UHGV virus genome: UHGV-0019417
Strand: one strand, 5' to 3'
Length of the DNA stretch: 51,928 bases
From: a virus
A model generated the notes under the pieces. That model saw nothing but the letters and a program-made list of their open reading frames with translations, made no database searches and was not told the DNA's origin. Of the stretch, positions 31,718 to 48,789 are shown piece by piece (positions within the stretch are counted from its first letter, which is position 1; every line of letters begins with the position of its first letter). The translations under genes were made by a program, and so were the position numbers.

Positions 31718-31912
31718 AAAGTCCTTTTTTAATTCCTATATTCTCATTTATTAACCTTTAAAAAACGCATATTGCCGTATGCACTTAATAAGAGACAAGC
31801 CTAAATTTTAAACAACAATGATTGCTATTTTATAAAAAATAATGTTTTATAAATAACAAAAAAAAATAGTGAAGTGTTTCTTTTTTGCAATTATAAAATA
31901 GCAATCATATAT

Positions 31913-31998
31913 GCCTCAGTGGTGAAAGTGGTAGACACGAAAGACTTAAAATCTTTTAAACAGAAATGTTTGTGCAGGTTCGAATCCTGTCTGAGGTA
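31913..31998 (+). tRNA. tRNA-Leu (anticodon UAA), type II with a long variable arm
   Basis: acceptor GCCTCAG/CTGAGGT (G1-U72), D-arm GTG-AAAGTGGTAGA-CAC, anticodon arm AAAGA-CTTAAAA-TCTTT, 17-nt variable hairpin, T-arm GCAGG-TTCGAAT-CCTGT, discriminator A. Confidence 0.8.
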
Positions 31999-32020
31999 CA
32001 AAATTCTAAGATTAATTTAT

Positions 32021-34069
32021 ATGTATAAAGATTTATTTATTGATATTGAAACATATTCATCAGTTGATATTAAATCGTGTGGTGCTTATAAGTATATAGA
32101 ATCACCTGATTTTGAAATTTTGATTATTGGATATGCTTTTGACAATGAAGAAGTGCAATCTATTGATTTAGCTTCAGGTGATGAAATTCCAGAAGAATTT
32201 GAGGAAGCTTTATTTAATCCAAATATAAAAAAGCATGCACATAATGCTGTATTTGAAAGAAATGCTTTTAAAAGAATAGGATATGATATTCCTGTTGAAC
32301 AATGGTATTGTACACTTGTTAAATCAGCATATTGTGGATTACCATTAGGATTGGATGCTGTTTCAAAAGTTCTTGATTTACAAGATAAAAAATTAGATAC
32401 AGGTAAGGCTTTAATAAAATATTTTAGTTGCCCATGTAAGCCAACTAAAGTAAATGGAATGCGTACAAGAAATTATCCATGGGATGCTTCTGAAAAATGG
32501 GATATGTATATTGAGTATAATAAATATGATGTACTATCTGAAAGAGAAATATATAGGTTATTAGAAAAATACGACATTCCAGAATTTGAAAGAAGCCTAT
32601 ATATACTTGACCAAAATATTAATGATAGAGGAATCTTAATTGATACAGAATTAGCAGAATCTGCTATTTATGTCGATGAAAAATATACTGAAATGCTTAT
32701 GAATGAAAGTAAGCAAATCACAAATCTTGAAAATCCTAATTCTGTAGCTCAATTAAAAAAATGGTATGCTGAAAACTATGCTGATATCGTTGATAGTACA
32801 CTTACAGAAAATGATAAAAAGTTTTTAGCTACTGCTAATGGACAAACTTATGACCCAGCAAATCAATCCATGGCTGCTGAATCAATAAAAATGCTTTTAA
32901 AACTAGAAGCTGTACAATCTATTCAAGAATTAGTAACAGTTCTTGAAAATAGACAAAAGTTAGGTCGTTCATCAGTTAAAAAATATTATACAATGCTTAA
33001 CTGTAAAATGTCTGATGAACGTATAAGAGGCACATTTCAGTTTTATGGAGCTAATAGAACTGGTCGATGGGCAGGAAGGTTAGTGCAATTGCAAAACTTA
33101 TCAAAAAATCATACAGATGATATAGATACACCAAGAGAGTTAATACGAAAAAGAGATTGGGATACTGTAAATATGATGTATGGTGATGTTTCAGATATTT
33201 TATCACAATTAGTTAGAACAACATTTATTGCTCCTGATAATATGCTTTATTCAGTAGCTGACTTCTCTGCAATTGAAGCTAGAGTAGTATCATGGTTAGC
33301 TGATGAAGAATGGAGAATGAACGTCTTCAGAGGTGATGGAAAAATATATGAAGCAGCAGGTTCTCGTATGTTTAATGTACCTATTGAAGCAATTACAAAA
33401 GGTTCTGATTTAAGAGCAAAAGCTAAAAATGCAGAATTAGCACTCGGATATGGTGGCTCATTAGGTGCAATGAAACGTATGGGTGGTGATAAAATGGGTA
33501 TGAGTGATGCTGAAATGATGCACATTGTAAAGTTGTGGAGAAATGCAAATAAAAATATTGTAAATCTCTGGTCTGAAATAGAACGATGCGCACATGAAGC
33601 AGTAAGGTATAACAGAAAAGTTATTGGAACTCCACAAAATCTTGAATTTGATTGTAATGGAGATTATTTAATGATAACCTTGCCATCAAAAAGAGCATTG
33701 TATTATTATAAGCCTGTTTTTAAAGAAAAGAAAGTTGGACAAAGAACATCAAAACTTTTGTTTTACCAAGGTATGAACCAGGTAACAAAGCAGTGGGGAT
33801 TGATTGATACTTATGGTGGAAAATTAACAGAGAATATAGTACAAGCTATTTCAAGAGATTTAATTGGCTTTGCAATGAAGAATCTTGAAGAAAATGAATA
33901 TGCTATAACAATGCATGTACATGATGAAGCAATTGCAGAAATACCTGCTGATAATCCAACTGAAAAACTGAATAAAATGATAAAGATTATGTCTCAACCA
34001 CCAGAATGGGCAAAAGATTTACCATTAAATGCAGCAGGGTTTATCAGTAAATATTATATGAAAGATTAA
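32021..34069 (+). CDS. DNA polymerase, family A (3'-5' exo plus polymerase domains)
   Basis: Exo I FIDIETYS; motif A DFSAIEARV; motif B RAKAKNAELALGYGG; motif C HVHDE. The ORF-track start at 31874 overlaps the tRNA; start re-called to ATG 32021. Confidence 0.85.
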   Translation: MYKDLFIDIETYSSVDIKSCGAYKYIESPDFEILIIGYAFDNEEVQSIDLASGDEIPEEFEEALFNPNIKKHAHNAVFERNAFKRIGYDIPVEQWYCTLVKSAYCGLPLGLDAVSKVLDLQDKKLDTGKALIKYFSCPCKPTKVNGMRTRNYPWDASEKWDMYIEYNKYDVLSEREIYRLLEKYDIPEFERSLYILDQNINDRGILIDTELAESAIYVDEKYTEMLMNESKQITNLENPNSVAQLKKWYAENYADIVDSTLTENDKKFLATANGQTYDPANQSMAAESIKMLLKLEAVQSIQELVTVLENRQKLGRSSVKKYYTMLNCKMSDERIRGTFQFYGANRTGRWAGRLVQLQNLSKNHTDDIDTPRELIRKRDWDTVNMMYGDVSDILSQLVRTTFIAPDNMLYSVADFSAIEARVVSWLADEEWRMNVFRGDGKIYEAAGSRMFNVPIEAITKGSDLRAKAKNAELALGYGGSLGAMKRMGGDKMGMSDAEMMHIVKLWRNANKNIVNLWSEIERCAHEAVRYNRKVIGTPQNLEFDCNGDYLMITLPSKRALYYYKPVFKEKKVGQRTSKLLFYQGMNQVTKQWGLIDTYGGKLTENIVQAISRDLIGFAMKNLEENEYAITMHVHDEAIAEIPADNPTEKLNKMIKIMSQPPEWAKDLPLNAAGFISKYYMKD

Positions 34070-34074: not shown

Positions 34075-36456
34075 ATGAATGTTAAATATGATATAAATTT
34101 AGACATAGCGACTGCTCTTAGTGGTAATAGTAAAAAATGGAAAAATATAAAAACCAAATGGAGTAAGCTACTCGATAAATTATCAAATCCAGTAATTACA
34201 AATGAAACATATAAACAGTTTATTACAGCTACAAAAGCCGAGCAAGGAAAAATAAAAGATGTAGGTGGATACGTAGGAGGGTATTTATTAAATGGAAGCA
34301 GAAAAAAAGAAGCTGTATCATATAAGCAACTCATTACTCTTGATATTGATTTTTCTCACTGTGATTTTTGGGATGACTTTACTATCTTATACAGTTGTGC
34401 AGCATGTATACATTCAACCCATAAATCAACACCTTCTAAGCCTAGGCATAGATTAATAATACCACTAGATAGAGAAGTTTCAGTTGAAGAGTATGAACCA
34501 ATAGCTAGAAAAATAGCAGGAGACTTAAACATAGAGCTGTTTGACCAAACAACATTTGAAGTAAACAGATTAATGTTTTGGCCATCAGTTTCTAAAGATA
34601 CTAAATATTATTTTGAATATCAAGATGGTCCTATTTTAAGTGCTGATGATATTTTAAATTCTTATAATGATTGGCATAACATAAATGAATGGCCACATGC
34701 TAGCTCGATTGAGTCTTCTGTTTTATCAGAAATAAAAAAACAAGAAGACCCATCAGAGAAAAAAGGAATAATTGGTGCTTTTTGTAAAGCTTACAGCATA
34801 AATGAAGCAATAGAAACTTTTTTGAATGATGTTTATGAAGAAGCAGGAGAAGATAGGTATACATATACAAAAGGAACAACTGTAGCAGGCCTTATCGTTT
34901 ATGATGATAAGTTTGCTTATTCTCATCATAGTACTGACCCAGCTAGTAATAGGCTATGCAATGCTTTTGATTTAGTTCGTATACACTTATTTGGCCATTT
35001 AGATTCTGGAACAGAAAAAGATGACAGAAGTAAAAAGAGCTTTAAAAAAATGGAAGAGCTTATCATTAATGATAAGAAGACAAAAAAGCTCATAGCTGAA
35101 GAAAAACTTGTATTAGCTAAATCAGAATTTGGTGAACCAGTTGAGCAAGATAATATTGAATGGACAGAAAGCTTACAGATTAATTCAAAAGGAGATTACG
35201 AAAATTCTTCAATTAACTTAAATTTAATTCTTAAAAATGACAATATTCTTAAAAATGCTTTTGTAACAAACCAATTTGACCACATGCGCTATGTGCTAAA
35301 AGATTTACCTTGGCGTAAACTTGAAAGCTATCCTGATAATATGCTTGATGTTGATTATTCTGGTATAAGAAACTATATTGAGTGTGTATATGGTATTACA
35401 GCAAGTCAGAAAATTGATGATGCAATAGCAATTGAGTGTCAAAGAAAAAACTTTCATCCAGTAAGAGAATATTTAAATAATTTAAAATGGGATAAAGTAA
35501 ATAGAATTGATACACTGTTAATCGATTATTTTGGAGCTGACGACAATGCTTATACAAGAGCTGCTATTAGAAAAGCTTTATGTGCGGCTGTAGCTCGTAT
35601 AATAGAACCAGGGTGTAAATATGATATGGTTTTAATTCTTGTTGGTCCACAAGGAACATATAAAAGTACATTTGTAAAAAAACTTGGTAAAAATTGGTTT
35701 TCAGATACTTTTACGACAGTCCAAGGTAAAGAAGCTATTGAGCAATTATTAGGTTCATGGATTATTGAAATAGCTGAGTTATCAGCTTTTAAAAAATCTG
35801 AAGCTGAAGCTATTAAACAGTTTATTTCAAAACAACAGGATAAGTTTAGACCAGCTTATGCTCGTACTGTTGAAGTTTATAAAAGGCAATGTATATTTTT
35901 TGGTACAACAAATGATACAGATTTTTTAAGAGACCCGACAGGAAATAGACGTTTTAATCCTATTGATATTCACGTTGAAAGAATTAAAAAATCTGTAATT
36001 GATGATTTAACAGAAAACGAAATAGACCAAATATGGGCCGAAGCTTTTGAGCTTTATAAAGCTGGAGAAAAGCTTTATTTTGATGAAGAAGTTACTCAAT
36101 TAGCTAAAACTGAACAGTCAAAGCACTCTGCTACAGATGAACGAAAAGGCGTTATTGAAAATTATTTAAATAAATTATTACCAAAGGATTGGGATAAAAA
36201 AGATTTATATGAACGTAGAACATGGTTGGATGACCCATTGGCAAGTAATGGCGAAATAATACGTGACAGCGTTTGCATATCAGAAATCTGGTGTGAATGT
36301 TTAGGAAAAGAAAAAAATGATATGACGCGCTATAATACAAGAGAAATTAATGATATAATGCGCTCATTAGATGAATGGGAGTTTACATCTTCTACAAAGC
36401 AATTTAACTTTTATGGCAAACAAAAATATTACAAAAGAAAAACTGATTTATGGTAA
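34075..36456 (+). CDS. primase/helicase, VirE / D5-like P-loop NTPase
   Basis: 793 aa; Walker A LVGPQGTYKST; large N-terminal primase-like domain; typical partner of the DUF2800-PolA module. Confidence 0.65.
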   Translation: MNVKYDINLDIATALSGNSKKWKNIKTKWSKLLDKLSNPVITNETYKQFITATKAEQGKIKDVGGYVGGYLLNGSRKKEAVSYKQLITLDIDFSHCDFWDDFTILYSCAACIHSTHKSTPSKPRHRLIIPLDREVSVEEYEPIARKIAGDLNIELFDQTTFEVNRLMFWPSVSKDTKYYFEYQDGPILSADDILNSYNDWHNINEWPHASSIESSVLSEIKKQEDPSEKKGIIGAFCKAYSINEAIETFLNDVYEEAGEDRYTYTKGTTVAGLIVYDDKFAYSHHSTDPASNRLCNAFDLVRIHLFGHLDSGTEKDDRSKKSFKKMEELIINDKKTKKLIAEEKLVLAKSEFGEPVEQDNIEWTESLQINSKGDYENSSINLNLILKNDNILKNAFVTNQFDHMRYVLKDLPWRKLESYPDNMLDVDYSGIRNYIECVYGITASQKIDDAIAIECQRKNFHPVREYLNNLKWDKVNRIDTLLIDYFGADDNAYTRAAIRKALCAAVARIIEPGCKYDMVLILVGPQGTYKSTFVKKLGKNWFSDTFTTVQGKEAIEQLLGSWIIEIAELSAFKKSEAEAIKQFISKQQDKFRPAYARTVEVYKRQCIFFGTTNDTDFLRDPTGNRRFNPIDIHVERIKKSVIDDLTENEIDQIWAEAFELYKAGEKLYFDEEVTQLAKTEQSKHSATDERKGVIENYLNKLLPKDWDKKDLYERRTWLDDPLASNGEIIRDSVCISEIWCECLGKEKNDMTRYNTREINDIMRSLDEWEFTSSTKQFNFYGKQKYYKRKTDLW

Positions 36457-36743
36457 AAATAGAAAGCGAAAAGTTAATCGAAAGAAAATTAGTAGAATCA
36501 TGTAAATTAAATAATGGGCTGTGCATAAAATTATTAAGTAACTTTTTTATAGGATTACCAGATAGAATGTGCTTATTCCCTGGTGGAAAAATAATATTCG
36601 TAGAATTAAAAACAACAGGCCAAAAACCAAGAAAATCTCAAATACTTGTTCACAATCAATTACAAAAATTAGGATTTAAAGTATTTGTAGTCGATACGAC
36701 TGAGCAGATTATAGAACTGATTGATAAAATCATAAAATTATGA
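36450..36743 (+). CDS. VRR-NUC domain nuclease
   Basis: 97 aa; GLPDRMCLFPGGKIIFVELKTTGQKPRKSQ matches VRR-NUC core (PD..E.K). Confidence 0.65.
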   Translation: MVKIESEKLIERKLVESCKLNNGLCIKLLSNFFIGLPDRMCLFPGGKIIFVELKTTGQKPRKSQILVHNQLQKLGFKVFVVDTTEQIIELIDKIIKL

Positions 36744-38131
36744 ATGAAACAAATTTACATACTTACCAAAAAACTTGTATTCAACACATCATAAACCATA
36801 AATTTTGTGGTGTATTTCTTGAAATGGGATTAGGTAAAACAGTAACAACTTTAACAGCAATCAATTCATTAATGAATGATTATTGTGAAATAAATTCTGT
36901 TCTTATCATAGCTCCAAAACGAGTCGCTGAATCTGTATGGCAAGAAGAAGCAGAAAAATGGGACCATTTAAAAAATTTAAGGTTTTCTAAAATAATTGGC
37001 TCTCAACAACAACGAATGCAAGCATTGAGAATAAAAGCTGATATTTATATAATTTCAAGAGATAATGTAGCTTGGTTATGTGCTTTATTCGGAGGAACTA
37101 AACTTCCATTTGATATGATTGTAATCGATGAGTTGAGTAGTTTTAAAAGCTATAAATCACAACGATTTAAAGCATTAAAAATAATGCAACCATATTTTAA
37201 ACGCTTTGTAGGATTAACAGGTACACCAGCGCCAAATGGCTTAATTGATTTATGGCCCCAAATATACTTAATGGATAGAGGAGAACGATTAGGTAAAACA
37301 GTTACAGCTTATAGAAAAAATTTCTTTTCTCCTGGTATGACTAACGGAAATGTTGTTTATTCGTATAATCTTTTGCCAAATTCAGAATACATAATTCATG
37401 AAAGGATAAAAGACATATGCATTTCTATGAAATCAGCAGATTATTTACAAATGCCTATGAGGACTGATAATTTTATAAAGCTAAAAATGCCGGAAAGCAT
37501 AAAAAAGAAATATGATGAATTTGAAAAAGAAAAAGTATTAGAGCTGTTTCAGCATACTGATGAAGAAGTTGAAATAAATGTAGCAAATGCAGCAGCCTTG
37601 TCTAATAAATTATTACAGTTTGCAAATGGAGCTGTTTATGATGATGACAAAAGTGTATTTGAAATTCATCAATTGAAGTTAGAAGCTTTAAAAGAAATTG
37701 TTGAAAACTCAAATGGCAAATCAGTTTTAGTAGCTTGGACCTATCAATTTGATAGGGATAGGATTTTGGATTTTCTAAAAGCCTATAAACCAAGAGAGCT
37801 AAAAAAACCACAAGATATAATAGATTGGAATAATGGCAAAGTTCAAGTTATGTTAGCTCATCCAGCATCAGCTGGACATGGACTTAACCTTCAAGCAGGA
37901 GGTTCAATAATAGTCTGGTTTGGACTTACTTGGTCACTTGAATTATACCAACAGTTTAATGCTAGACTATATAGGCAAGGACAACAATGTCATGTTATAA
38001 TTCATCATTTAATTACTGAAAAAACATATGATGAAGATGTGATTAAAGCATTAAAACAAAAAGATAAAAAGCAAAGTGCTTTAATGGATTGTATAAAAGC
38101 AAGAATTGATAAATATAAAAAGTTATTATGA
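36740..38131 (+). CDS. SNF2-family helicase
   Basis: motif I LEMGLGKT, motif II VIDELS, motif III LTGTP, C-terminal helicase motifs (QFNARLYRQGQ). Confidence 0.8.
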   Translation: MNETNLHTYQKTCIQHIINHKFCGVFLEMGLGKTVTTLTAINSLMNDYCEINSVLIIAPKRVAESVWQEEAEKWDHLKNLRFSKIIGSQQQRMQALRIKADIYIISRDNVAWLCALFGGTKLPFDMIVIDELSSFKSYKSQRFKALKIMQPYFKRFVGLTGTPAPNGLIDLWPQIYLMDRGERLGKTVTAYRKNFFSPGMTNGNVVYSYNLLPNSEYIIHERIKDICISMKSADYLQMPMRTDNFIKLKMPESIKKKYDEFEKEKVLELFQHTDEEVEINVANAAALSNKLLQFANGAVYDDDKSVFEIHQLKLEALKEIVENSNGKSVLVAWTYQFDRDRILDFLKAYKPRELKKPQDIIDWNNGKVQVMLAHPASAGHGLNLQAGGSIIVWFGLTWSLELYQQFNARLYRQGQQCHVIIHHLITEKTYDEDVIKALKQKDKKQSALMDCIKARIDKYKKLL

Positions 38132-38179
38132 TTGAAAATTTAGAAAAAGGTTAATTATTAACTGGTCTTGCTATTGTAA

Positions 38180-38295
38180 AAAAATACAAAAAATCAAGAT
38201 TAATGCTATTTAACTGAATTATTACAAAAATTAACAGAAAAAATTTTATTGCTGAGTAAAAAATTATTATATTTGCAGTGTTAAAATAAAGCAAG
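38180..38295 (+). repeat. 115-bp direct repeat R1 (gene 3'-end fragment plus promoter), paired with R2 at 40010-40125
   Basis: AATACAAAAAATCAAGATTAATG...TTATTATATTTGCAG about 95% identical to R2; in R2 the first 24 nt are the real C-terminus (EYKNQD*) of the DUF3310 gene. Confidence 0.8.
38231..38275 (+). promoter_or_regulatory. promoter with upstream TTAACAG motif (-7 box TATATTTG at 38268-38275)
   Basis: TTAACAG at 38231-38237, exactly 30 nt upstream of the -7 box; same spacing at 40049/40086, 47154/47191, 49045/49082. Confidence 0.5.
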
Positions 38296-38319
38296 TAATA
38301 ATTTTAAAGTTAAGTAAAA

Positions 38320-39261
38320 ATGGAAAGAAAATATAAGCTAACTGATAAGCACATTCAATATAATAGGCACAAACTTTATCGAATACAGGCTCTTAAGTCT
38401 TTCGCTGATGTTAAAGAGGGAGATTTTGGTGGATACATAGAATCAGAGGATAATCTCTCGCATAATGGGACGTGTTGGGTCTATGATAATGCTGTGGTAT
38501 ACGACAATGCTAAAGTATTCGATAGTGCTAATGTATTTGGTAATGCTGTGGTATATGGCAATGCTGATGTACTTAATAATGCTGAGGTTTATAATACAGC
38601 TGAAGTATATGGCAATGCTAAAGTATATGGCAATGCTAAAGTGTATGGTTGTGCTGAGGTACATCGTAATGCTGAAGTGTATGGCTACGCCGAAGTGTAT
38701 GGTAATGCTGAAGTATATGATAATGCTGAAGTATGTGGCAATGCTAGAATCTGTGGTGATGCTAAGATATATGACTATGCTTGGGTCTATGGCAATGCTA
38801 AAATCAGTGGTGATGCTAATATCTATGATTATGCTAGAATCTGCGGTGATGCATATATTTTAGAAAATGCTAAAGCCTGTGACCACGTTAAGGTAAGTGG
38901 ATATGCTGAGATACGTGGCTATGCTAAGGTATACGGTATTGCTAAAGTACGTGGTGATGCTAAAGTATATGGTTATGCTGAAGTACATGGTAATGCTGAG
39001 GTATATGGCCATGCTGAAATGTACGGTAATGCTGCAGTCTGTGAAAATACTGATTACATAGTATTTAAAAACTGGTGGAGCAGCGGGCGATATTTCACAT
39101 GGACACGTAGTAATAATATGTGGAAGGTAGGATGTTTTTATGGTACAGGAGAAGAGCTAATAATGAAAGCATATAATGATAGTAAAGAAAGTGGAAGAGA
39201 ATACGAACGAGTTGTAAAATATGTTGAAAGCATACTTGCTGATGATAATTACGCAGAATAA
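38320..39261 (+). CDS. hexapeptide-repeat (predicted beta-helix) protein with C-terminal globular domain
   Basis: about 30 consecutive xVYGNA(E/K) hexads (aliphatic at i, small at i+4), encoded by 18-bp DNA tandem repeats 38480-39060; C-terminal 90 aa non-repetitive. Confidence 0.6.
   Translation: MERKYKLTDKHIQYNRHKLYRIQALKSFADVKEGDFGGYIESEDNLSHNGTCWVYDNAVVYDNAKVFDSANVFGNAVVYGNADVLNNAEVYNTAEVYGNAKVYGNAKVYGCAEVHRNAEVYGYAEVYGNAEVYDNAEVCGNARICGDAKIYDYAWVYGNAKISGDANIYDYARICGDAYILENAKACDHVKVSGYAEIRGYAKVYGIAKVRGDAKVYGYAEVHGNAEVYGHAEMYGNAAVCENTDYIVFKNWWSSGRYFTWTRSNNMWKVGCFYGTGEELIMKAYNDSKESGREYERVVKYVESILADDNYAE
38480..39060 (+). repeat. 18-bp coding tandem repeat array GTRTATGGYAATGCTRAR
   Basis: about 32 imperfect units in frame within the 38320..39261 CDS. 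Confidence 0.8.
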
Positions 39262-39263
39262 AT

Positions 39264-39641
39264 ATGATAAGAGAACAAGTAAAAGAGCTTCTGCCTATAA
39301 TAAAAGCTTACGCAGAAGGTAAAACAATACAATATTATTATGGAGATGCAGATTGGATAGATATTAATGGAGCTGTTGATTTTAGCGATAATCCTTCAAA
39401 ATATCGCATCAAGCCAGAATCAAAATATCGTCCATTTGCTAATAATGAAGAGTGTTGGAAAGAAATGCAAAAGCATCAACCTTTTGGATGGATAAAATCT
39501 AATGTGGATAAGCATCTTTATTCTATATTAGCAATCACAAACAATGGTTGTGTTCTTATAGATAGGAGTATAATTTCATTTCAACATTTTTATAAATACA
39601 ATACGTTTGCTGACGGTACGCCGTTTGGCTTTAAAGAATAA
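39264..39641 (+). CDS. hypothetical protein
   Basis: 125-aa ORF in the repeat-flanked cassette. Confidence 0.4.
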   Translation: MIREQVKELLPIIKAYAEGKTIQYYYGDADWIDINGAVDFSDNPSKYRIKPESKYRPFANNEECWKEMQKHQPFGWIKSNVDKHLYSILAITNNGCVLIDRSIISFQHFYKYNTFADGTPFGFKE

Positions 39642-39652
39642 AAACAATTACT

Positions 39653-40021
39653 ATGATTGAAGTATTAAACAAAGAAGTAGGAGGCGTGCATTATAAAAAC
39701 ATGAAAATGCAACCAATAGAATTGATTGTAAAAACAGATTTAAATTTTATACAAGGTTGCATAGTTAAATATATAACAAGATATAAAAATAAAAATGGTA
39801 AAGAAGATATTGAAAAAGCTATACACAATGCTCAATTAGCTATTGATTTACATTCAAATGGGCCAGATGATTGTATAAATGAAGGCTATGCGTATTGTAA
39901 AATAAATAAGCTTTCAAATTTACAAACAACAGTAATTATTTCTGCAATGCAAAATGATTATTACAAAGTAATAAAATATTGTTATAATATTTTAAAAAAT
40001 GAATACAAAAATCAAGATTAA
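39653..40021 (+). CDS. DUF3310-family protein
   Basis: 122 aa; N-terminal VHYKNMKMQPIELI matches the DUF3310 HY...QPIE signature common in phage nucleotide-metabolism regions. Confidence 0.45.
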   Translation: MIEVLNKEVGGVHYKNMKMQPIELIVKTDLNFIQGCIVKYITRYKNKNGKEDIEKAIHNAQLAIDLHSNGPDDCINEGYAYCKINKLSNLQTTVIISAMQNDYYKVIKYCYNILKNEYKNQD

Positions 40022-40048
40022 TGTTATCTAACTGAATTATTACAAAAA

Positions 40049-40093
40049 TTAACAGAAAAAATTTTATTGCTGAGTAAAAAATTATTATATTTG
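40049..40093 (+). promoter_or_regulatory. promoter with TTAACAG motif (-7 box at 40086-40093), inside repeat R2
   Basis: same architecture as 38231-38275. Confidence 0.5.
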
Positions 40094-40140
40094 CAGCATT
40101 AAAATAAAGCATTTATAACTTTTAAAATCAAAACAAAAAA

Positions 40141-41910
40141 ATGACTACAAACAACAATTATTTGCTAATTACACTAGGCCACAACTCATCTGCATTATTT
40201 ATTGATAACACAAACGGGTGTGACCAAAAAATTATTGGCTATGAACAAGAAAGACTTTCAAGAATTAAATCTGATAGCCAATTTCCATTTGATGCAATCA
40301 ATGAAATTAAAAAGCATGTACCATTTTCTAAATTAGAGGGATGCCAAATACGAATTTCTCACTGGTTTGATGACTTTCTTCCTTCTAGCAATAAGTATAT
40401 TGGTGAAAATGGATTCAGAATGCTAAAAGAAATTTCTACAAATATTGTAGATACTAATGGCAATGGCTTTACACACCATGACGCTCACGCTTATAGTGCA
40501 TATAATTTTATGCTAGAATCGAATACTGATTTGAAGTATTTTAACAAACCAATATATTGTATTGTAGCAGATGGTTTTGGTAATCAGCAAGAAGTTTTTT
40601 CAATTTACGCATTTACACCAAATATTGATACAAAACCAAAGTGTATTTTTAAATCCTACGGCTATTATCAATCTCTTGGTTTGATGTACCAATTTGCAAC
40701 ATCATTTGTTGGAATGAAAGAAAACCAAGATGAATATAAATTTTTAGGATATGAATCACATATCGCTGAAGTTTTAAGTGAGCAACAAATTGCAATGCTA
40801 ACATCTGTTGCTGAATTTGATTCTGACAAAATGATAAAAAGAATAAAAGAGTGCACAGAAAAAATTCAAATTTCAGATATTGATAAAAATATTGGAATCA
40901 GTATTTCTGATTTAGATAAAGCTCGAGATTTATTCAATCATTTATTCTCAAGAGTTTTTAAACATTTAGGCATTGATAAAGATAATAATATTCATATTTC
41001 AAGAGTTATAATGGGATATTATGTACAATGCATCATAGAATCTGTTATTACTAGCTTTATTGATGAATATGAAATGAATAATGTCTGCGTTGCTGGTGGA
41101 TGTTTCTACAATGTAAAATTAAACAATTCAATACTTGAAGCAATAGATGGTTATTTTAGTGCTATGCCTTTAGCAGGAGACCAAGGAGCAGCAATAGGAA
41201 TGTATGCAAAAGAAGTCGGATTTAATTCTAATATTTCTATTAAGTTTAATACGCTGAATTTTGGTAAAAGAAATTTCTATAATGCAGACAAACTAGTATC
41301 TAAAATAAACAATGCATATTATTTTACAAACAGTAAATATGCAGCTATGGCAATATCAGATTTTATTTCAAATGATTGTATTGTTAATATAATACATAAT
41401 GATATGGAATTTGGTCCAAGAGCATTGGGGCATACTTCAACTTTATTTTTGCCAACAGAAGAAAATGTGGCATTTGTAAATTATATAAATAACAGAAATG
41501 AAGTTATGCCATGTGCACCTATATGTACAATTGGAAGTGCTCATGATTTATTTGACATCTATGAATTATCAAGGACAGTCGGTTCTGATAGATTTATGAT
41601 TTGTACACATAAGTATATGAGAAAATATAATAAGCTTTATGGTGGTGTAATGCATAAAAAACCTTTGATTAAAGATTATACTGGAAGACCACAAATTGTA
41701 ACAAAAAATGAAAATTTCTTATATACAATTCTAGAATCTGTTAAAAAAGATACAGGCTATACATGCTTAGTTAATACTAGTTTTAATGTACATGGCCAAC
41801 CTATTGTATTTGATATACACAGTATTATTCAGAATTTTATGTATCAGCAAGCACAAACTTATACGCATAAATTCAATAAAAAAGTTGTATTGGTAATTAT
41901 TAATGATTAA
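40141..41910 (+). CDS. carbamoyltransferase, NodU/CmcH/TobZ family (Kae1-like N-domain plus YrdC-like C-domain)
   Basis: 589 aa; N-terminus LLITLGHNSSALFID....IIGYEQERLSRIKSDSQFPFDAI matches the carbamoyltransferase N-terminal signature (LG.HDS..AL...G....A..EER..R.K.D..FP). Confidence 0.65.
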   Translation: MTTNNNYLLITLGHNSSALFIDNTNGCDQKIIGYEQERLSRIKSDSQFPFDAINEIKKHVPFSKLEGCQIRISHWFDDFLPSSNKYIGENGFRMLKEISTNIVDTNGNGFTHHDAHAYSAYNFMLESNTDLKYFNKPIYCIVADGFGNQQEVFSIYAFTPNIDTKPKCIFKSYGYYQSLGLMYQFATSFVGMKENQDEYKFLGYESHIAEVLSEQQIAMLTSVAEFDSDKMIKRIKECTEKIQISDIDKNIGISISDLDKARDLFNHLFSRVFKHLGIDKDNNIHISRVIMGYYVQCIIESVITSFIDEYEMNNVCVAGGCFYNVKLNNSILEAIDGYFSAMPLAGDQGAAIGMYAKEVGFNSNISIKFNTLNFGKRNFYNADKLVSKINNAYYFTNSKYAAMAISDFISNDCIVNIIHNDMEFGPRALGHTSTLFLPTEENVAFVNYINNRNEVMPCAPICTIGSAHDLFDIYELSRTVGSDRFMICTHKYMRKYNKLYGGVMHKKPLIKDYTGRPQIVTKNENFLYTILESVKKDTGYTCLVNTSFNVHGQPIVFDIHSIIQNFMYQQAQTYTHKFNKKVVLVIIND

Positions 41911-41916
41911 GCAAAA

Positions 41917-42576
41917 ATGAAAAAGCTATATACTCCATACATTGTAGCTTTTTCTGGTGGTTGTTTTTCTGGTAAAACAACCACCATTAAAAAAATTGCT
42001 GAAAAATTAAGGCAACTTGGCTATACTGTATATGTTTTAAATGAAAATATAAGGGACAAAAATGTATTTAGAAAAGCAGGTAATATAGATAATATTAGGC
42101 AAGACCCGAATTCTTATTTGCTTTTACAAAATGAAATAATAAGAGAAAAAATAGAAAATGAAAATGAAATATTGGGAGTTAAATACACTACTAAAACTAT
42201 AATTTTAGTTGATAGGGCTTTAACTGATTCATTGTTTTATTTATCATGCTATGTTGACAAAGTTAATCTAACACTAGAAAATAAAAAAACATTTAAGCAT
42301 CTGTTTAGTTATATTTATATGATTCTTTTACTCAGTAAAAGGTATGATAAAGTATTAGAATTTAGGCCTATAAAAATTGAAAATATCGATAAATACAGGC
42401 CTAAAGATTTAGAGCATTTGCACTTTTTTGAGTATGAAATGATTCATTGCCTTAACAATAATTTTTTTGATAAAAGCATTATGGAAAAAAATATAAACAT
42501 AAAGCAAGAAAGCTGTATAGATAATTTAGTAAATAATATAATAAGAGATTATGCAATTAAACAACGAACAAATTAA
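41917..42576 (+). CDS. P-loop kinase, deoxynucleotide/deoxynucleoside-kinase-like; candidate modified-dNMP or 5-hmdU DNA kinase
   Basis: Walker A AFSGGCFSGKTTT; DRA lid-like motif (VDRALTD). Confidence 0.5.
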   Translation: MKKLYTPYIVAFSGGCFSGKTTTIKKIAEKLRQLGYTVYVLNENIRDKNVFRKAGNIDNIRQDPNSYLLLQNEIIREKIENENEILGVKYTTKTIILVDRALTDSLFYLSCYVDKVNLTLENKKTFKHLFSYIYMILLLSKRYDKVLEFRPIKIENIDKYRPKDLEHLHFFEYEMIHCLNNNFFDKSIMEKNINIKQESCIDNLVNNIIRDYAIKQRTN

Positions 42577-43333
42577 AAATTTAATAACATCTCCACATTG
42601 GCAAAAAATATTTAAGCAATTATATAATTCAAAAAATTCAGAAAATGATAGCTGTTTTGAGTTAATCGGATTTCAATATTCATTTAACCCACGAAAAAAT
42701 TATATAATATCAAGAAATAAATTAGTTTTTGATATAGAGAAAGCTGCAAAAATGTATTATTGGTATAAAAATAAAAACAGTAGTGATAAATCAATAATTG
42801 ATAGCTTTCCTGAATATGAAAATTGTTTTTATGGAGGAAAATTTTTAAGTAAACAAAAATGCAATTCTAATTATGGAATATATGCATATAATAAAAATGG
42901 ATTAGATTTTTGTATTGAAAAGTTAAAAGCAAATTATAAAACAAGGCAAGCTTGCTTTTGTATAAATAATAATAAAGCAATGTCTTCACCAGATAAACTT
43001 TGTACAAATACAATTCATTTTAATATAAAAAATGAGAGACTGATTATGGTTATACAAATGAGGTCATCAAATTTTTTAACTTTACTTCCTTATGATATTT
43101 TTAACTTTACAATTTTTTATGCTTATGTGTATGAAGCTTTAAGAGATTATTATTTTAATTTGAAAACGTGCGATATTGTAATGCAAATAAACTCATTGCA
43201 CTGTTATACAAAAGATTTAATAAAAGCTATTGGTATAAAAGATTTATCTTATCCAAATAATCTTTTAAGCTTTTCTGTTAAAAAAATAATAAATAATTTT
43301 GAAAATAATTTAAAAAGATGCAACGAACAATGA
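42551..43333 (+). CDS. divergent ThyA-family protein (thymidylate synthase / pyrimidine hydroxymethylase fold)
   Basis: IQMRSSNFLTLLPYDIFNFTIFYA aligns to ThyA QRSxDxFLGxPFNIASYALL; Cys in QACFC aligns to PCH; the residue at the ThyA Asn177 position is not Asn/Asp. Confidence 0.5.
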   Translation: MQLNNEQIKNLITSPHWQKIFKQLYNSKNSENDSCFELIGFQYSFNPRKNYIISRNKLVFDIEKAAKMYYWYKNKNSSDKSIIDSFPEYENCFYGGKFLSKQKCNSNYGIYAYNKNGLDFCIEKLKANYKTRQACFCINNNKAMSSPDKLCTNTIHFNIKNERLIMVIQMRSSNFLTLLPYDIFNFTIFYAYVYEALRDYYFNLKTCDIVMQINSLHCYTKDLIKAIGIKDLSYPNNLLSFSVKKIINNFENNLKRCNEQ

Positions 43334-43839
43334 CACCAGGAAAATTTAGATTTACAAAAGTACGTGATGTAAAATCACCAGTTAGAGGTACAAACTTATC
43401 TGCTGGTATTGATTTTTTTGTACCAAAAGATTTTAAGCCATTTGTTCTTTTGCCACATAAGGATGTGTTAATCCCGTCTGGTATTAAAGCCTCATTTGAA
43501 AAAGTTTGTATGCTAATGGCAGCAGAAAAATCAGGCGTAACAAGCTCAGCTGAAGCAAAAGCTATTTCTAATATGGATGCTAATAATTCATACCAATCAC
43601 CTACAGTTTTAGGAGCAAAGATTGTTGATGCAGATTATCAAGGAGAAATACACATCCACATTATAAATGTAGGTAATAAACCTATTCTTATTGAGCCAGA
43701 CAAGAAAATAGCTCAGTTTATTTTAGTGCCTGTTTTATATTGCGAAATTGAAGAGATAGATTCAGAAAAAGAATTGTTCGCAAATGAATGCTCTTCTCGT
43801 GGTAACAAAGGTTTTGGTAAAGGAACTGGTGAAAATTAA
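43318..43839 (+). CDS. dut: dUTPase (trimeric dUTPase/dCTP-deaminase superfamily)
   Basis: motif I SAGIDF, motif III GAKIVDADYQGE, motif IV IAQFILVPV. Confidence 0.8.
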   Translation: MQRTMTPGKFRFTKVRDVKSPVRGTNLSAGIDFFVPKDFKPFVLLPHKDVLIPSGIKASFEKVCMLMAAEKSGVTSSAEAKAISNMDANNSYQSPTVLGAKIVDADYQGEIHIHIINVGNKPILIEPDKKIAQFILVPVLYCEIEEIDSEKELFANECSSRGNKGFGKGTGEN

Positions 43840-43844
43840 ATGAT

Positions 43845-44297
43845 ATGACAATTGGAAAAGCTTTAGAGTTAGTAGACACTCCTGTATTTTTGCAGAATGT
43901 TGAAAAATACTTAAATAAATGGCTATATTTAGCTAAATTGCCCAATGGGCCGTTAGGAAGATGGCTTTGTGAATATCAGCAAATGGAAGATAAAGGATTA
44001 TTTAAGCCTGCTATCTTTAAAGCTTTTTATAAATTAGAATTGCAAAGCAAGTTAAATATAGGCTTTATAAAAAGTTGTCCAGTTCATTATGTTGGTGTAT
44101 ATGCTATGGATGATACATATTTATATTATAGCTTACGAGAGCATAGTTATAAAATATGTGTTATTACAGGAGAAATAGCATGTGATGATGATGGTGATGA
44201 TTTAATAGGTTTATCTTATGATGAAGCTAAAGAAATTTGTGATTCTATGAATATTGAAGCTGAAGAAAAATTATTTAAAATAATGGTAAATGATTAG
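43845..44297 (+). CDS. hypothetical protein
   Basis: 150-aa ORF inside the nucleotide-metabolism cluster; acidic C-terminus. Confidence 0.4.
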   Translation: MTIGKALELVDTPVFLQNVEKYLNKWLYLAKLPNGPLGRWLCEYQQMEDKGLFKPAIFKAFYKLELQSKLNIGFIKSCPVHYVGVYAMDDTYLYYSLREHSYKICVITGEIACDDDGDDLIGLSYDEAKEICDSMNIEAEEKLFKIMVND

Positions 44298-44949
44298 TCT
44301 AATATGTAAAAATGCTACAGAAGCTTTTGAGATATTGTATGAAACAATTTCAAGAGTTGGCCAATCTACTAATATAGATACAAAAGCTATTTATAATGTA
44401 AGTATTGAAATACAAAATCCAACCGATAGAAATATAACAACACATTGGAGAAAATGGAGTAAAAAATATGCTGAAAGAGAATGGAACTGGTATTTATCAG
44501 CAAATCCTTCTGTACAAGAAATTAAAAAGTTTGCTCCTATGTGGGATAAAATGCACAGCGGAAATAATATTGTAAATTCAAATTATGGCTTCCAATGGTC
44601 AAGAAACAAGCAACTACAAAAAGTAATTGAACAACTACAAAAAAATCCTAATTCTCGTCAAGCATGGATTACTATCTACGATGGAAAAGAAAAAGATAAT
44701 TATGATTTTGATACACCTTGCACATTAGCTGTAGGATTTGATATAAAGCCAAATAGCGAATCAGTTGATATGACAGTGTGTATGAGGTCAAATGATTTAA
44801 TATATGGATTTTGTAATGACCAGTATTGTTTTAGTAAATTACAAGAATATGTAGCTCATCTTTTAAACAGGCCAGTTGGAACATATACTCATTTTGCACA
44901 TGACATGCATATTTATAATAATAAACTTAACTTAAAAAATTATGAATAA
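44290..44949 (+). CDS. ThyA-family enzyme, uracil-type (thymidylate synthase or dUMP hydroxymethylase)
   Basis: YGFQWS, NPNSRQAWITIY, catalytic DTPCTL (PCH equivalent), MRSNDLIYGFCNDQYCF (QRSxD..G.PFN), HIYNN with Asn at the ThyA N177 position; short at 219 aa. Confidence 0.75.
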   Translation: MISLICKNATEAFEILYETISRVGQSTNIDTKAIYNVSIEIQNPTDRNITTHWRKWSKKYAEREWNWYLSANPSVQEIKKFAPMWDKMHSGNNIVNSNYGFQWSRNKQLQKVIEQLQKNPNSRQAWITIYDGKEKDNYDFDTPCTLAVGFDIKPNSESVDMTVCMRSNDLIYGFCNDQYCFSKLQEYVAHLLNRPVGTYTHFAHDMHIYNNKLNLKNYE

Positions 44950-45884: not shown

Positions 45885-46535
45885 ATGTTAGAAATTTCAA
45901 ATATTAAAGTTTACGATTTAAAAGAATCAATAATTGCTTGTAGAAATGCTATGAGACTAGATATGCCTTCGTACTCTGATGAAGAGTTTAATAAAGGTTT
46001 AGAAAGAGCAAAGAAACTATGCAAATCTGGTAGTGGGCATGCTAATTTTAGAAAAGGTATTCGTGTATCTTTTGATATGAAATATACACAGTATATAACA
46101 AAACAGTTTCAACGTTATCATTTTTTTGATTATGTATCAAGCAGTAGCTTAATGCATAGAATTACAAAAATGGACTTTACAAAATGCTGTAATAAATATG
46201 TCGATGATAGGGTTATTGCAATCATGCAAGAACTAATTTCTGATTATAATATTGGAAAAGAAAAATCAGAAATTATAATAAAGCAAAATTTAACAAAATA
46301 TACTGAAAAAGAAATTGAAAGCATTAAAAATCAGCTTTATACTTCTTGGATGAAAATTATATCTAATTGTCCTATGGGGTGTGAATTATTTACTAGAGTT
46401 TCAACAAACTATGAACAATTAGCTACTATATATAAACAACGTAAAAATCATAAATTAAAAGAAGATTGGGGAACATTTATTAAATTTATAGACAATTTAC
46501 CATACTCAGATGAATTGATAAAATGTACAAACTAG
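45885..46535 (+). CDS. hypothetical protein, possibly ThyX-like (flavin-dependent thymidylate synthase fold), weak
   Basis: GHANF..GIRVSF...TQYITKQFQRY loosely resembles ThyX HASF..GISRV...HQLVRHR...SQRY, but the RHR motif is not conserved. Confidence 0.25.
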   Translation: MLEISNIKVYDLKESIIACRNAMRLDMPSYSDEEFNKGLERAKKLCKSGSGHANFRKGIRVSFDMKYTQYITKQFQRYHFFDYVSSSSLMHRITKMDFTKCCNKYVDDRVIAIMQELISDYNIGKEKSEIIIKQNLTKYTEKEIESIKNQLYTSWMKIISNCPMGCELFTRVSTNYEQLATIYKQRKNHKLKEDWGTFIKFIDNLPYSDELIKCTN

Positions 46536-46966
46536 ATAAATCAAAAGCCGTAGAATTGGATATTTCAAATGATGCTTTTTATTTATTTACAGAAGATGAT
46601 GAACCGATAGATGAATCATGTTATGATGAAATAAATAATTTATATGCAAAATATGAATCATTTGAAATAGAAAAAATAAAAGAATTAAATAACGGCTTAA
46701 TTAAAGTACTGTTAATTCCTTATGTAGAAACAAATCAATCATGGGATTATTTTATTTCTATGTTTAATAACTGGATATTAAATATAAAAATATTATCTGA
46801 AACAGAAGTTTTAATACAGAGTGAACAAGTAAGTACAGGCAAAATCAGTTATTGTGTAAAAGGGCAAATTATAGAATTACATTGTAAAAAATGGATTAAA
46901 TATAAAATTACAGAAACACAAAAAGTTTATAACCAAATACCTTTATTTAAAGCCAATAAATATTAA
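46523..46966 (+). CDS. hypothetical protein
   Basis: 147-aa ORF, last gene before the bidirectional terminator. Confidence 0.4.
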   Translation: MYKLDKSKAVELDISNDAFYLFTEDDEPIDESCYDEINNLYAKYESFEIEKIKELNNGLIKVLLIPYVETNQSWDYFISMFNNWILNIKILSETEVLIQSEQVSTGKISYCVKGQIIELHCKKWIKYKITETQKVYNQIPLFKANKY

Positions 46967-47040: not shown

Positions 47041-47082
47041 AAAACGTCTCCAGAGCGCTCAGAATAGTCCTGGAGACGTTTT
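47041..47082. terminator. bidirectional intrinsic terminator
   Basis: AAAACGTCTCCAG ... CTGGAGACGTTTT: 9-bp stem flanked by an A-run and a T-run. Confidence 0.7.
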
Positions 47083-47153
47083 AAATCTTTTCATTAGCTA
47101 CTTTTCAATTAAAATTTAAAAATTAATGATTTTAAACAGTTAATTAATAATCA

Positions 47154-47198
47154 TTAACTGTAAAAACTTTTACTATTGCAATATTATTTATATATTTG
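47154..47198 (+). promoter_or_regulatory. promoter with CAGTTAAT/ATTAACTG palindrome (-7 box TATATTTG at 47191-47198)
   Basis: TTAACTG ends 30 nt before the -7 box; ATTAACTGTAAAAACTTTTA nearly identical to 49043-49062. Confidence 0.5.
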
Positions 47199-47233
47199 CA
47201 GTATTAAAAATAATCATTAAAACAGCTTTTAAA

Positions 47234-47566: not shown

Positions 47567-47577
47567 AAATTATAAAT

Positions 47578-47962: not shown

Positions 47963-47966
47963 AAAA

Positions 47967-48765: not shown

Positions 48766-48789
48766 TAACAGCATAAAATCCAAAGAAAA

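Follow-up and report, generated by a model that had tools for sequence, protein, structure and literature searches.

Duplication of a predicted promoter junction around a hypervariable accessory gene slot in a gut phage genome

Introduction

Concerted evolution by gene conversion is known from dispersed repeats such as bacterial rRNA operons and tuf genes. Accessory genes that lie between resident genes and have their own promoters, termed morons, are reportedly found in lambdoid and other phages. Promoter-bearing modules have been described in T4-type phages as PeSL (promoter-early stem-loop) regulatory cassettes (Arbiol et al. 2010, PMC2839356; Comeau et al. 2014, PMC4122927), and the sigma-ABfr promoter consensus of Bacteroides consists of TTTG at -33 and TAnnTTTG at -7 (PMC7366714).

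Here we describe a locus in UHGV-0019417, the genome of a gut phage of Bacteroides type (the 51,928 nt analysed are referred to below as the window) at which a gene end and its predicted promoter occur twice, as direct repeats around three genes, and we compare it with about 100 related contigs, including approximately 16 close relatives that span the interval. The locus is a real feature of an ordinary kind, a promoter-junction duplication in a hypervariable accessory slot, and it reveals no new kind of mobile element. The two repeats are probably paralogous copies of one junction, between which accessory genes turn over singly.

Results

Structure of the repeat pair and of the genes around it

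The repeats span 132 nt each (38189-38320 and 40007-40138, 89% identity; these and all features below lie on the + strand) and align without gaps in a register of 1818 nt. Identity reaches 97.8% over the first 90 nt (38189-38278) and 94.4% over 38189-38295, and a 48-nt core (38231-38278 and 40049-40096) is 100% identical and occurs exactly twice in the window, against an expectation of zero from shuffles. An initial annotation had placed direct repeats of about 95% identity at 38180-38295 and 40010-40125; the repeats are real, but that pairing is out of register (offset 1830), the true partner of 40010-40113 being 38192-38295. Each copy consists of the last bases of a DUF3310 gene, the motif TTAACAG-N30-TAnnTTTGCAG and most of a 5′ UTR. 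The upstream copy comprises a relic gene end, a TTAACTG box (38213-38219), a TTAACAG box (38231-38237), a -7 box TATATTTG (38268-38275) and the 5′ UTR of a beta-helix gene, and the downstream copy the DUF3310 stop codon, a TTAACAG box (40049-40055), a -7 box TATATTTG (40086-40093) and the 5′ UTR of a carbamoyltransferase gene. The initial annotation was correct that both copies carry the same TTAACAG-N30-TATATTTG motif, for which a promoter role is predicted. A search of the repeat with Rfam returned no RNA family.

To the left the interval is anchored by an SNF2-family helicase gene (36740-38131; Pfam SNF2-rel_dom, E=3.6e-23) that is conserved in all relatives at 72-98% amino acid identity, and to the right by the carbamoyltransferase gene (40141-41910; Pfam Carbam_trans_N/C; PHROG 1601), the first gene of a nucleotide-metabolism operon. 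The three gene calls made earlier between these anchors were confirmed: the beta-helix gene (38320-39261), an ORF here named orf125 (39264-39641) and DUF3310 (39653-40021; Pfam DUF3310, E=3.9e-8). As also proposed, the first bases of the downstream copy lie within the genuine 3′ end of DUF3310 (..EYKNQD and a stop codon at 40019-40021), and the upstream copy carries a pseudo C-terminus (..KNTKNQD and a stop codon at 38201-38203) in non-coding DNA after the SNF2 gene.

The product of the beta-helix gene matches the YdcK structures PDB 2f9c/2pig over residues 19-132 (E=1.9e-18) and the Pfam model B_solenoid_ydck at 35.6 bits against a cut-off of 30, its gene contains an array of 18-nt (hexapeptide) repeats at 38473-39087, and it falls in PHROG 7964/5070 (function not annotated). 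On this sequence similarity and its hexapeptide-type solenoid repeats it is predicted to be a left-handed beta-helix protein of the YdcK family. Homologues were found in 80 unrelated viral contigs, and in other phages the gene stands without a TTAACAG-type module. The orf125 gene, which has no Pfam match, starts 2 nt past the beta-helix stop codon with no terminator predicted between them; tblastn located homologues adjoining beta-helix genes in six loci, and a peptide-pattern search of IMG/VR returned no orf125 relatives. PADLOC gave no match for the beta-helix protein, orf125 or DUF3310.

A family of promoter-like modules

Consensus match and positional conservation suggest that both repeat copies hold a Bacteroidota-type promoter, TTAACAG-N30-TAnnTTTGCAG. 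The window contains three matches to TTAACAG-N29-31-TAnnTTTG where 0.04 are expected, and the exact 30-nt spacing is found in four modules, all of them on the + strand and upstream of ORFs. Five modules could be recognised in total, with -7 boxes at 29009, 38268, 40086, 47191 and 49082, in the early/replication half of the genome. Those outside the repeat pair lie at 28971-29031 (upstream of gene 29046; repeat family D7), at 47118-47220 (TTAACTG-N30-TATATTTGCAG, upstream of gene 47234; family D4) and at 49009-49111 (TTAACAG-N30-TATATTTGCAG, upstream of gene 49143). Two module pairs bracket lineage-specific genes. A second lineage-specific ORF block (47234-48507) is also bounded by two module copies, and the pairs around both blocks are some 1.8-1.9 kb apart. 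The distance from -7 box to start codon is 45 nt for the beta-helix gene, 48 nt for the carbamoyltransferase gene and 54 nt for gene 49143. Neither repeat copy forms a significant stem-loop (folding z of 0.24 and 1.13), the only stem-loop being at the paralogous module 47191 (z=-4.1), and no terminator-like sites were found in 37900-40400. A scan for sigma-70 promoters returned 15 sites against 16.6 expected and is uninformative for this host.

The module at 49082 is adjoined by a further partial duplication.

The downstream copy and the resident DUF3310 gene

A megablast search of 36400-42600 against GenBank phages returned only a 48-nt match, to Bacteroides phage BF503P4. The phage has no close cultured relative; the nearest ones are Bacteroides fragilis phages. 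A tblastn search detected DUF3310 in 71 of the 80 relatives from IMG/VR; every close relative that covers the interval has it too, as does the B. fragilis phage BF503P1. The order DUF3310 end, promoter, carbamoyltransferase is conserved throughout the family, cultured B. fragilis phages included: the junction with TTAACAG-N30-TAnnTTTGCAG is found in L035, L043, L050, L052 and L237 and in a looser version in L240, and in BF503P1 the -7 box is retained at the corresponding position. Distant relatives that have the carbamoyltransferase gene are laid out as SNF2, zero or one small ORF, DUF3310, promoter and carbamoyltransferase; family members such as L035, L237 and BF503P1 commonly have small ORFs separating SNF2 from DUF3310, and in the nearest outgroups (L240, L001 and L004) DUF3310 adjoins SNF2 directly. 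Judged by this conserved order, the downstream copy is the one in the ancestral context. None of the 80 more distant relatives (L001-L080, IMG/VR) has the beta-helix gene or orf125, as expected if the three genes were a cassette of variable presence, but DUF3310 is resident there. On this distribution only the beta-helix gene and orf125 are accessory. No relative was found with the same three genes, without flanking repeats, downstream of an intact DUF3310 gene.

A DUF3310 3′ relic, a candidate 5′ relic and the proposed origin

The 3′ relic of DUF3310 covers 38158-38203. Its end (38184-38203) is near-identical to 40002-40021, with one indel, and in shuffle tests its upstream extension was significant against the DUF3310 alleles of L171 (8 of 3000 shuffles) and L180 (60 of 3000) and not significant against the window's own allele. 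A candidate 5′ relic of an older copy lies at 38128-38154, where an ATG overlapping the SNF2 stop codon is followed by 8 codons (MIENLEKG and a stop) and 18 of 27 nt match the 5′ end of DUF3310 in register (empirical p of 2.5e-4 among all 27-mers and 0.009 among those starting with ATRAT). The segment 38128-38150 had at first been dropped as a relic, the same spacer being present in L167, which has no repeat, and was partly reinstated because the outgroup L240 has its DUF3310 ATG at exactly this site and because of the 18/27 test. The evidence that 38128-38154 is a 5′ relic is thus weak; given the repeat-free L167 it could be just native spacer, which would favour insertion of a fragment consisting of the 3′ relic, the promoter and the beta-helix gene.

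Under the reading that we prefer, the downstream copy would be the ancestral promoter of the carbamoyltransferase/nucleotide-metabolism operon, and the upstream copy would have a single origin before the species-level clade split. The YdcK-like beta-helix gene, with orf125, would have come between two DUF3310-promoter units, most likely because relatives whose accessory genes lay on opposite sides of DUF3310 underwent homologous or unequal recombination. Internal deletion of the redundant upstream DUF3310 gene would then have left the clear 3′ relic and the weak 5′ relic after SNF2, and the upstream copy would now serve as promoter and 5′ UTR of the accessory genes, placing them under the same control as the downstream operon. 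We infer both this founding event and the present role of the upstream copy, the latter as a prediction from sequence. The initial annotation had proposed insertion or duplication by recombination between promoter modules; an origin through recombination between DUF3310-promoter units is indeed plausible, because the upstream copy sits where DUF3310 abuts SNF2 in L240, L001 and L004 and because of the weak 5′ relic, and the copies do recombine, but the three genes are not present or absent as one unit.

Gene-by-gene turnover among close relatives

Orthologous upstream copies precede the beta-helix gene in L163-165, L171-174, L180-183 and L186-187. Four relatives (L167-170) lack the equivalent of 38163-39242, that is, the upstream repeat and the beta-helix gene, and keep the SNF2 spacer and orf125. 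The latter gene is also present in L163-164, L174 and L183, is affected by an in-frame deletion in L171 (beta-helix protein of 223 aa), is disrupted in L172/173 and is absent from L180-182; an extra gene, orf80, occurs in L163-164 and L174, and beta-helix protein lengths of 223 to 331 aa are seen in the close relatives. What varies is accordingly the relic with repeat and beta-helix gene, orf125 alone, orf80 alone, and the repeat number within the beta-helix gene. Indel endpoints fall in the SNF2 spacer, at the beta-helix stop codon, in the gap between the beta-helix gene and orf125 and inside orf125, and no indel runs from module to module. As judged from these contigs the slot between the repeats is hypervariable, its genes being gained and lost singly and not as the single presence/absence unit of three genes that had been suggested, in which DUF3310, resident family-wide, would have been included.

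The state of L167-170 also bears on whether a full upstream DUF3310 gene ever existed. A promoter-carrying moron, combining the terminal ~46 nt of DUF3310 with the promoter and the beta-helix coding sequence and copied from a donor with the order DUF3310-promoter-beta-helix, could instead have entered the spacer between SNF2 and orf125 of an L167-like ancestor by illegitimate insertion. Exactly this segment is missing from L167-170, with spacer and orf125 retained, small ORFs between SNF2 and DUF3310 are frequent in the family (L035, L237 and BF503P1 among them), and the 5′ relic is weak. However, L167 nests in a clade whose most divergent member, L163 (86-87% nucleotide identity), carries the repeat and the beta-helix gene, so loss is favoured; divergence of the beta-helix gene follows that of its flanks, and the clade is visibly mosaic (window and L167 share 93% identity in SNF2 and 89% in the carbamoyltransferase gene). 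By parsimony in this mosaic clade, the L167-170 state probably reflects loss and not an empty ancestral site. Nor was the donor order found among the 80 beta-helix loci, where a local DUF3310 HMM matched only a fusion protein in L134, and the in-register 18/27 match at the L240 DUF3310 start site would be unexpected. We regard insertion of such a moron as possible but unlikely.

Still less probable is that the three genes and one repeat form a cassette that entered by promoter-module recombination and can be lost precisely, or as a circle, through its repeats. The repeat-cassette-repeat structure is the expected product of Campbell-type integration or unequal crossover, the upstream copy is at the ancestral DUF3310 position after SNF2, sequence exchange between the copies is demonstrated (see below), and the ORF block at 47234-48507 is likewise bounded by two module copies. 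Against this, none of the approximately 16 contigs spanning the interval has the SNF2-repeat-carbamoyltransferase arrangement that deletion from repeat to repeat would leave, so the ready route to precise loss that the repeats had been thought to offer is not seen in use, although rare variants of this type may have escaped so small a sample. The observed indels all end elsewhere, at the sites given above, and the beta-helix gene travels without this module in other phages; moreover, since DUF3310 is conserved family-wide, the deletion product would be without a resident gene.

Gene conversion between the copies

Within an 83-nt core, the upstream and downstream copies of one genome differ at 0-7 positions and orthologous upstream copies of different genomes at 10-14. 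Quartet sites in the core group by genome and not by position in ratios of 8:0, 6:0 and 3:0 (17:0 in total), whereas those in the 5′ UTR tail group by position (0:4). Cores grouping by genome and tails by position indicate that the promoter cores are kept alike by gene conversion between the two copies. Orthology between lineages holds for the relic, the 5′ UTR tail and the beta-helix gene, and the duplication is, on this comparison, older than the species-level clade. Purifying selection on a shared promoter could by itself be thought to explain the near identity, since the exact 48-nt core matches the position of the predicted functional boxes, and family members retain both these boxes and the distance between them. 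It is nevertheless a very improbable explanation, as it predicts neither paralogues closer than orthologues nor 17 derived informative sites common to both copies of a genome, least of all parallel identical substitutions at spacer positions.

Assembly of the repeat region

A mis-assembled repeat can be dismissed almost entirely as the source of the duplication: many short-read contigs do stop within the repeat (L161, L162, L166, L175-179, L184, L185), but other contigs, obtained from independent samples with different assemblers, run through both copies in the same order and carry lineage-specific variants (L163, L164, L171-174, L180-183, L186, L187). Its recurrence with such variants in at least 10 assemblies made independently from different samples shows that the duplication is not an artefact. 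Exact look-ups of the SNF2 and carbamoyltransferase proteins likewise retrieved nothing but short Logan contigs ending within the repeat. Short-read assemblies of this phage thus break predictably at the repeat, which is of practical relevance, and some configurations are therefore hidden. A scan of IMG/VR with the exact 48-nt core gave no matches (relatives there all have at most 78% SNF2 identity), and a scan of metagenome contigs with the relic 18-mer TTAACTGGTCTTGCTATT gave 45 matches, all in unrelated genes, and is therefore uninformative on deletion variants.

Discussion

The locus offers a natural series in which a newly acquired phage gene is given an existing promoter; it comprises a single ancestral layout, a single founding duplication and five or more derived layouts from gut metagenomes. 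Gene conversion homogenises the two promoter copies, which lie 1.8 kb apart, and the intervening genes turn over one at a time. As with rRNA operons and tuf genes, which evolve in concert, paralogous copies in one genome resemble each other more than orthologues do between genomes, and the homogenised tract has clear boundaries. The tract here differs in being about 90 nt of phage regulatory DNA, in direct orientation and with copies 1.8 kb apart, and a crossover between these copies would delete a resident gene.

The beta-helix gene resembles a moron in being absent from relatives (L001-L080, L167-170), in lying between conserved genes with its own promoter-like element and in having homologues scattered over unrelated phages. 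Unlike that of a moron, its promoter appears not to have been imported with the gene but to be a copy of the resident promoter of the same genome; no terminator is predicted after the gene, and no such module accompanies it in other phages.

Transcription signals of Bacteroides phages are poorly mapped, and TTAACAG-N30-TAnnTTTGCAG is a concrete, testable candidate promoter class. Its modules share with sigma-ABfr promoters an exact TAnnTTTG box, 45-54 nt before the start codon, and we count as a further likeness a T-rich TTTT 19-20 nt upstream of that box. They depart from the consensus in having TTTT/ATTG and not TTTG as the -33 element, and in the conservation of a TTAACAG box 30 nt before the -7 box and of GCAG after it. 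Both of these lie outside the host consensus and may therefore mark a phage-specific regulatory class.

The PeSL cassettes of T4-type phages provide a close parallel in organisation. In both systems short, repeated intergenic modules with a known or predicted promoter occur several times per genome, lie in regions where non-essential lineage-specific genes abound, flank such genes and interact via homologous recombination. The differences are that neither repeat copy here has a significant stem-loop or a terminator, that the predicted promoter is of the Bacteroidota TAnnTTTG type and not sigma-70, that only about five copies are present, a low number relative to T4-type phages, and that indels among relatives never have both endpoints in modules. 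One copy here also carries a gene relic, which points to duplication of a gene/promoter junction and not of a free-standing cassette. The sequence exchange between copies, the two module-bounded blocks and the partial duplication at 49082 nonetheless lead us to raise a speculative and rather doubtful reading, in which the TTAACAG-N30-TAnnTTTGCAG modules are a Bacteroides-phage counterpart of PeSLs, portable cassettes whose recombination with one another seeds duplications, captures promoterless accessory genes (the YdcK-like beta-helix gene being an example) and occasionally excises the genes that they flank as circles. If this were so, the modules would be the chief driver of accessory-gene turnover in this gut phage family, which is an abundant one.

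The repeat pair and its predicted promoter

The interval between the SNF2 helicase gene (36740-38131) and the carbamoyltransferase gene (40141-41910) contains a pair of direct repeats, at 38189-38320 and 40007-40138, of 132 nt and 89% identity, aligned without gaps at a register of 1818 nt. Identity reaches 97.8% over 38189-38278 and drops to 71% over the final 41 nt ahead of the two start codons; a 48-nt core (38231-38278 = 40049-40096) is 100% identical, with exactly two occurrences in the window and none in 100 shuffles. The initial annotation described this structure accurately, though about 12 nt out of register, and its gene calls were confirmed for both flanks and for the three genes between the repeats: a 313-aa beta-helix protein of the YdcK family (38320-39261; PDB 2f9c, E=1.9e-18) with an internal 18-nt repeat array, the small accessory orf125 (39264-39641) without family match, and DUF3310 (39653-40021). 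It was also right that the downstream copy begins within the genuine 3′ end of DUF3310 (stop codon 40019-40021), and that the upstream copy carries, in non-coding DNA, a pseudo C-terminus KNTKNQD with a stop codon at 38201-38203.

Both copies contain TTAACAG, exactly 30 nt, and then TATATTTGCAG. The -7 box of the Bacteroides primary sigma factor is TAnnTTTG (PMC7366714), and the cultured phages nearest to this virus infect Bacteroides fragilis and measure 52-54 kb (DNA polymerase 67% identical). The window has three occurrences of the bipartite motif, where 0.04 would be expected; with one mismatch allowed, the 30-nt spacing is common to four modules (-7 boxes at 38268, 40086, 47191 and 49082), with a fifth, looser one at 29009. 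All five are intergenic, on the + strand and upstream of ORFs. Motif, -7 box, host of the relatives, enrichment and placement together make a predicted promoter role for the repeat unit well motivated. Neither copy has a significant stem-loop (folding z 0.24 and 1.13) or a terminator-like site nearby.

Ancestral layout and relics of DUF3310

The interval was compared with 80 IMG/VR relatives (SNF2 72-78% identical), two nearer outgroups (80%) and the cultured phage BF503P1. Their genes run from SNF2 through at most a few small ORFs to DUF3310, followed, where the carbamoyltransferase gene is carried, by an intergenic promoter and that gene. TTAACAG-N30-TAnnTTTGCAG also follows the DUF3310 stop codon in relatives L035, L043, L050 and L052 and in outgroup L237, and neither the beta-helix gene nor orf125 was found in any of the 80 IMG/VR relatives. 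This common order and motif, with the 0/80 count, place the downstream copy in its ancestral context and mark DUF3310 as a resident gene, so that the accessory genes are just two, the beta-helix gene and orf125.

Upstream, the junction is a pseudo-copy. What is left there of the DUF3310 3′ end comprises a near-identical block at 38184-38203 and reaches back to approximately 38158; this extension is significant when compared with the DUF3310 alleles of close relatives L171 (8/3000 shuffles) and L180 (60/3000), and not when compared with the window's own, derived allele. A candidate 5′ relic at 38128-38154 consists of an ATG right at the SNF2 stop codon and eight further codons, matching the DUF3310 start in register at 18/27 nt (empirical p 2.5e-4; 0.009 when limited to similar-starting 27-mers). 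The DUF3310 ATG of outgroup L240 overlaps the SNF2 3′ end at the same position, and in relatives L001 and L004 the DUF3310 start is no more than a few bases away from the SNF2 stop. This 5′ relic is nevertheless a weak candidate, because L167, a close relative without the repeat, has the same spacer.

Single-gene turnover among close relatives

At 90% identity the SNF2 protein falls in a cluster of 39 gut-metagenome sequences, and contigs encoding its members show at least six layouts of the interval. With R for a repeat copy and P for a single promoter, the window, L186 and L187 read R - beta-helix(313) - orf125 - DUF3310 - R. The same layout has orf125 disrupted in L172 and L173 and replaced by a divergent 134-aa homologue in L183; L163, L164 and L174 carry an extra small ORF, orf80, behind the beta-helix gene (L165 ends after that gene); L171 has an in-frame deletion of orf125 (remnant ATGAACAGACAA / GAATAA) and a beta-helix protein of only 223 aa; and L180-182 lack orf125 and encode a beta-helix protein of 301 aa. 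L167-170 read SNF2 - spacer - orf128 - DUF3310 - P - carbamoyltransferase, without the relic, upstream repeat and beta-helix gene (window 38163-39242). The SNF2 - repeat - carbamoyltransferase layout predicted by precise loss between the repeats was present in none of the approximately 16 contigs spanning the interval. By this series and that absence, what varies is the single gene rather than the block of three. The available natural variants thus give no support to the mobile, precisely excisable three-gene cassette of the initial annotation; its expected absence from relatives extends to the beta-helix gene and orf125, and not to the resident DUF3310. Many short-read contigs (L161, L162, L166, L175-179, L184 and L185) end inside the repeat, which is expected since it exceeds the assembly k-mer and is no sign of heterogeneity.

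The 18-nt (hexapeptide) array of the beta-helix gene (window 38473-39087) differs in length among close relatives, and the range of protein lengths (223, 301, 313 and 331 aa; L171 9581-10252, L180 6571-7476, L163 9510-10505) suggests solenoid repeat expansion and contraction. An unrelated 59-kb viral contig, L134, encodes in one ORF (6001-6846) a beta-helix N-terminal region, a solenoid (B_solenoid_ydck, E=5e-11) and a DUF3310 domain (Pfam, E=1e-13), a fusion that hints at a functional link between these neighbours in the window. Homologues of orf125 (38-46% aa) lie directly upstream of beta-helix homologues, the reverse of the window's order, in several unrelated phage contigs (L107 4960-6214, L132 5080-6693, L136 5047-6600, L160 5631-6423); the two genes may travel or work together.

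Age and concerted evolution of the repeats

Within the clade L163 diverges most (86-87% nt in the SNF2, DUF3310 and carbamoyltransferase genes); it already has the upstream repeat and beta-helix gene, and divergence of the beta-helix gene parallels that of its flanks. The duplication is therefore older than the clade. L167-170 nest within the clade (93% in SNF2) and most parsimoniously lost the repeat and beta-helix unit.

Without exchange, the two copies of a genome would be expected to have diverged no less than orthologous copies of separate lineages, which is not so here. Over an 83-nt core (AAGATTAAT...TTTGCAG), upstream and downstream copies differ at 0-2 positions in the window subclade, 5-6 in L163/L164 and 7 in L180, against 10-14 between upstream-copy orthologues. 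Purifying selection alone does not account for identical derived changes at spacer positions. Quartet sites group the core by genome rather than by position (8:0, 6:0 and 3:0) and the 41-nt 5′UTR tail by position (0:4), and L171 has a private substitution, TTTGCAA for TTTGCAG, in both its copies: the signature of gene conversion between the copies, across a tract of about 90 nt.

Proposed origin

Relatives with accessory genes on opposite sides of DUF3310 probably recombined to give SNF2 - DUF3310 - P - beta-helix - orf125 - DUF3310 - P - carbamoyltransferase. The family contains both parent-type layouts, with an ORF separating P from the carbamoyltransferase gene in L004 and ORFs separating SNF2 from DUF3310 in L035, L237 and BF503P1. 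Campbell-type insertion via DUF3310-P homology would yield the same product. The main, less probable rival is insertion of a fragment (3′ relic, promoter, beta-helix gene) into an L167-like empty site; no donor with that order was found among 80 beta-helix loci, and in other phages the beta-helix gene sits tight behind the preceding gene, without a promoter module. Following recombination between relatives, an internal deletion would have removed the redundant upstream DUF3310, as the relics suggest. Conversion demonstrably homogenises the copies, and the genes between them turn over singly. The upstream copy would drive the accessory genes, regulated like the nucleotide-metabolism operon.

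Other features of the genome

The operon behind the downstream copy (40141-44949) encodes the carbamoyltransferase, a P-loop kinase, a thymidylate-synthase-like protein (BF503P1 counterpart annotated dCMP hydroxymethylase), a dUTPase and a second ThyA-like protein, a gene set pointing to hypermodification of a pyrimidine in the phage DNA.

Five small ORFs (47234-48507) between modules 47191 and 49082 have no homologues in the 72-80% relatives, where the flanks (46523-46966 and 49143-50225) are conserved; they form a second accessory block between two module copies 1891 nt apart. A GC-rich terminator-like hairpin, AAAACGTCTCCAG...CTGGAGACGTTTT, precedes module 47191 (hairpin/repeat sites 47041-47083 and 47136-47161), which contains a perfect 9-nt inverted repeat, ACAGTTAAT/ATTAACTGT (fold z=-4.1), that could be an operator. 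A second partial duplication, 48749-48893 / 49102-49246 (145 nt, 86%), adjoins module 49082; 353 nt upstream, the 5′UTR of gene 49143 and its first 36 codons recur, forming the start of orf78 (48790-49026), and the C-termini of orf85 and orf78 are alike. The homologue of gene 49143-50225 is opposite in strand to SNF2 in many of the 80 relatives (e.g. L003 19432-20394), among them L001 and most of the clade whose SNF2 is ~73% identical, and co-oriented in L035, L043, L050 and L052, which implies inversion of its module within the family.

An 84-nt repeat occurs at both window ends in four copies, 74-98% identical (1-84, 605-688, 51207-51290 and 51632-51715), each adjoining small minus-strand ORFs; its reverse complement contains GCAGTTCGAATCTGC, which resembles a tRNA T-arm, with no call by ARAGORN or Rfam. 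The DNA polymerase ORF listed mechanically with a GTG start (31874-34069) has tRNA-Leu(TAA) (31913-31999) inside its 5′ end, and since relatives' polymerases are 682-700 aa the true start is probably downstream of the tRNA. ORF 29458-29787 contains a near-perfect 9-nt tandem repeat, CTGCTGCTC, of about 10 units (29531-29647). Palindromic repeat clusters at 3086-3426 and 28681-28942, ~25.4 kb apart, comprise CTCTAACTCATTGAAAATCAATGAGTTAGAG with flanking GTTTCTCT motifs, and both lie at apparent module boundaries.

Comparison with known systems

The nearest counterpart described so far is the PeSL cassettes of T4-type phages. These are repeated promoter-plus-stem-loop modules located in hyperplastic regions, which bring about modular shuffling and give rise to mini-circles (PMC2839356, PMC4122927). 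Like PeSLs, the modules here are repeated, carry a predicted promoter, associate with accessory genes (including the 47234-48507 block) and are recombinationally active. Two defining PeSL features are absent, however, in that the two repeat copies have no stem-loop or terminator and none of the observed indels has both ends in modules; the locus may therefore act partly like a PeSL pair and is not classed as one. The beta-helix gene fits the moron concept, but its predicted promoter is a copy of a resident one. The locus adds one more case to a familiar type of phage genome plasticity, together with a well-documented instance in which a duplicated promoter junction evolves in concert and a candidate class of promoter in a family of Bacteroides phages.
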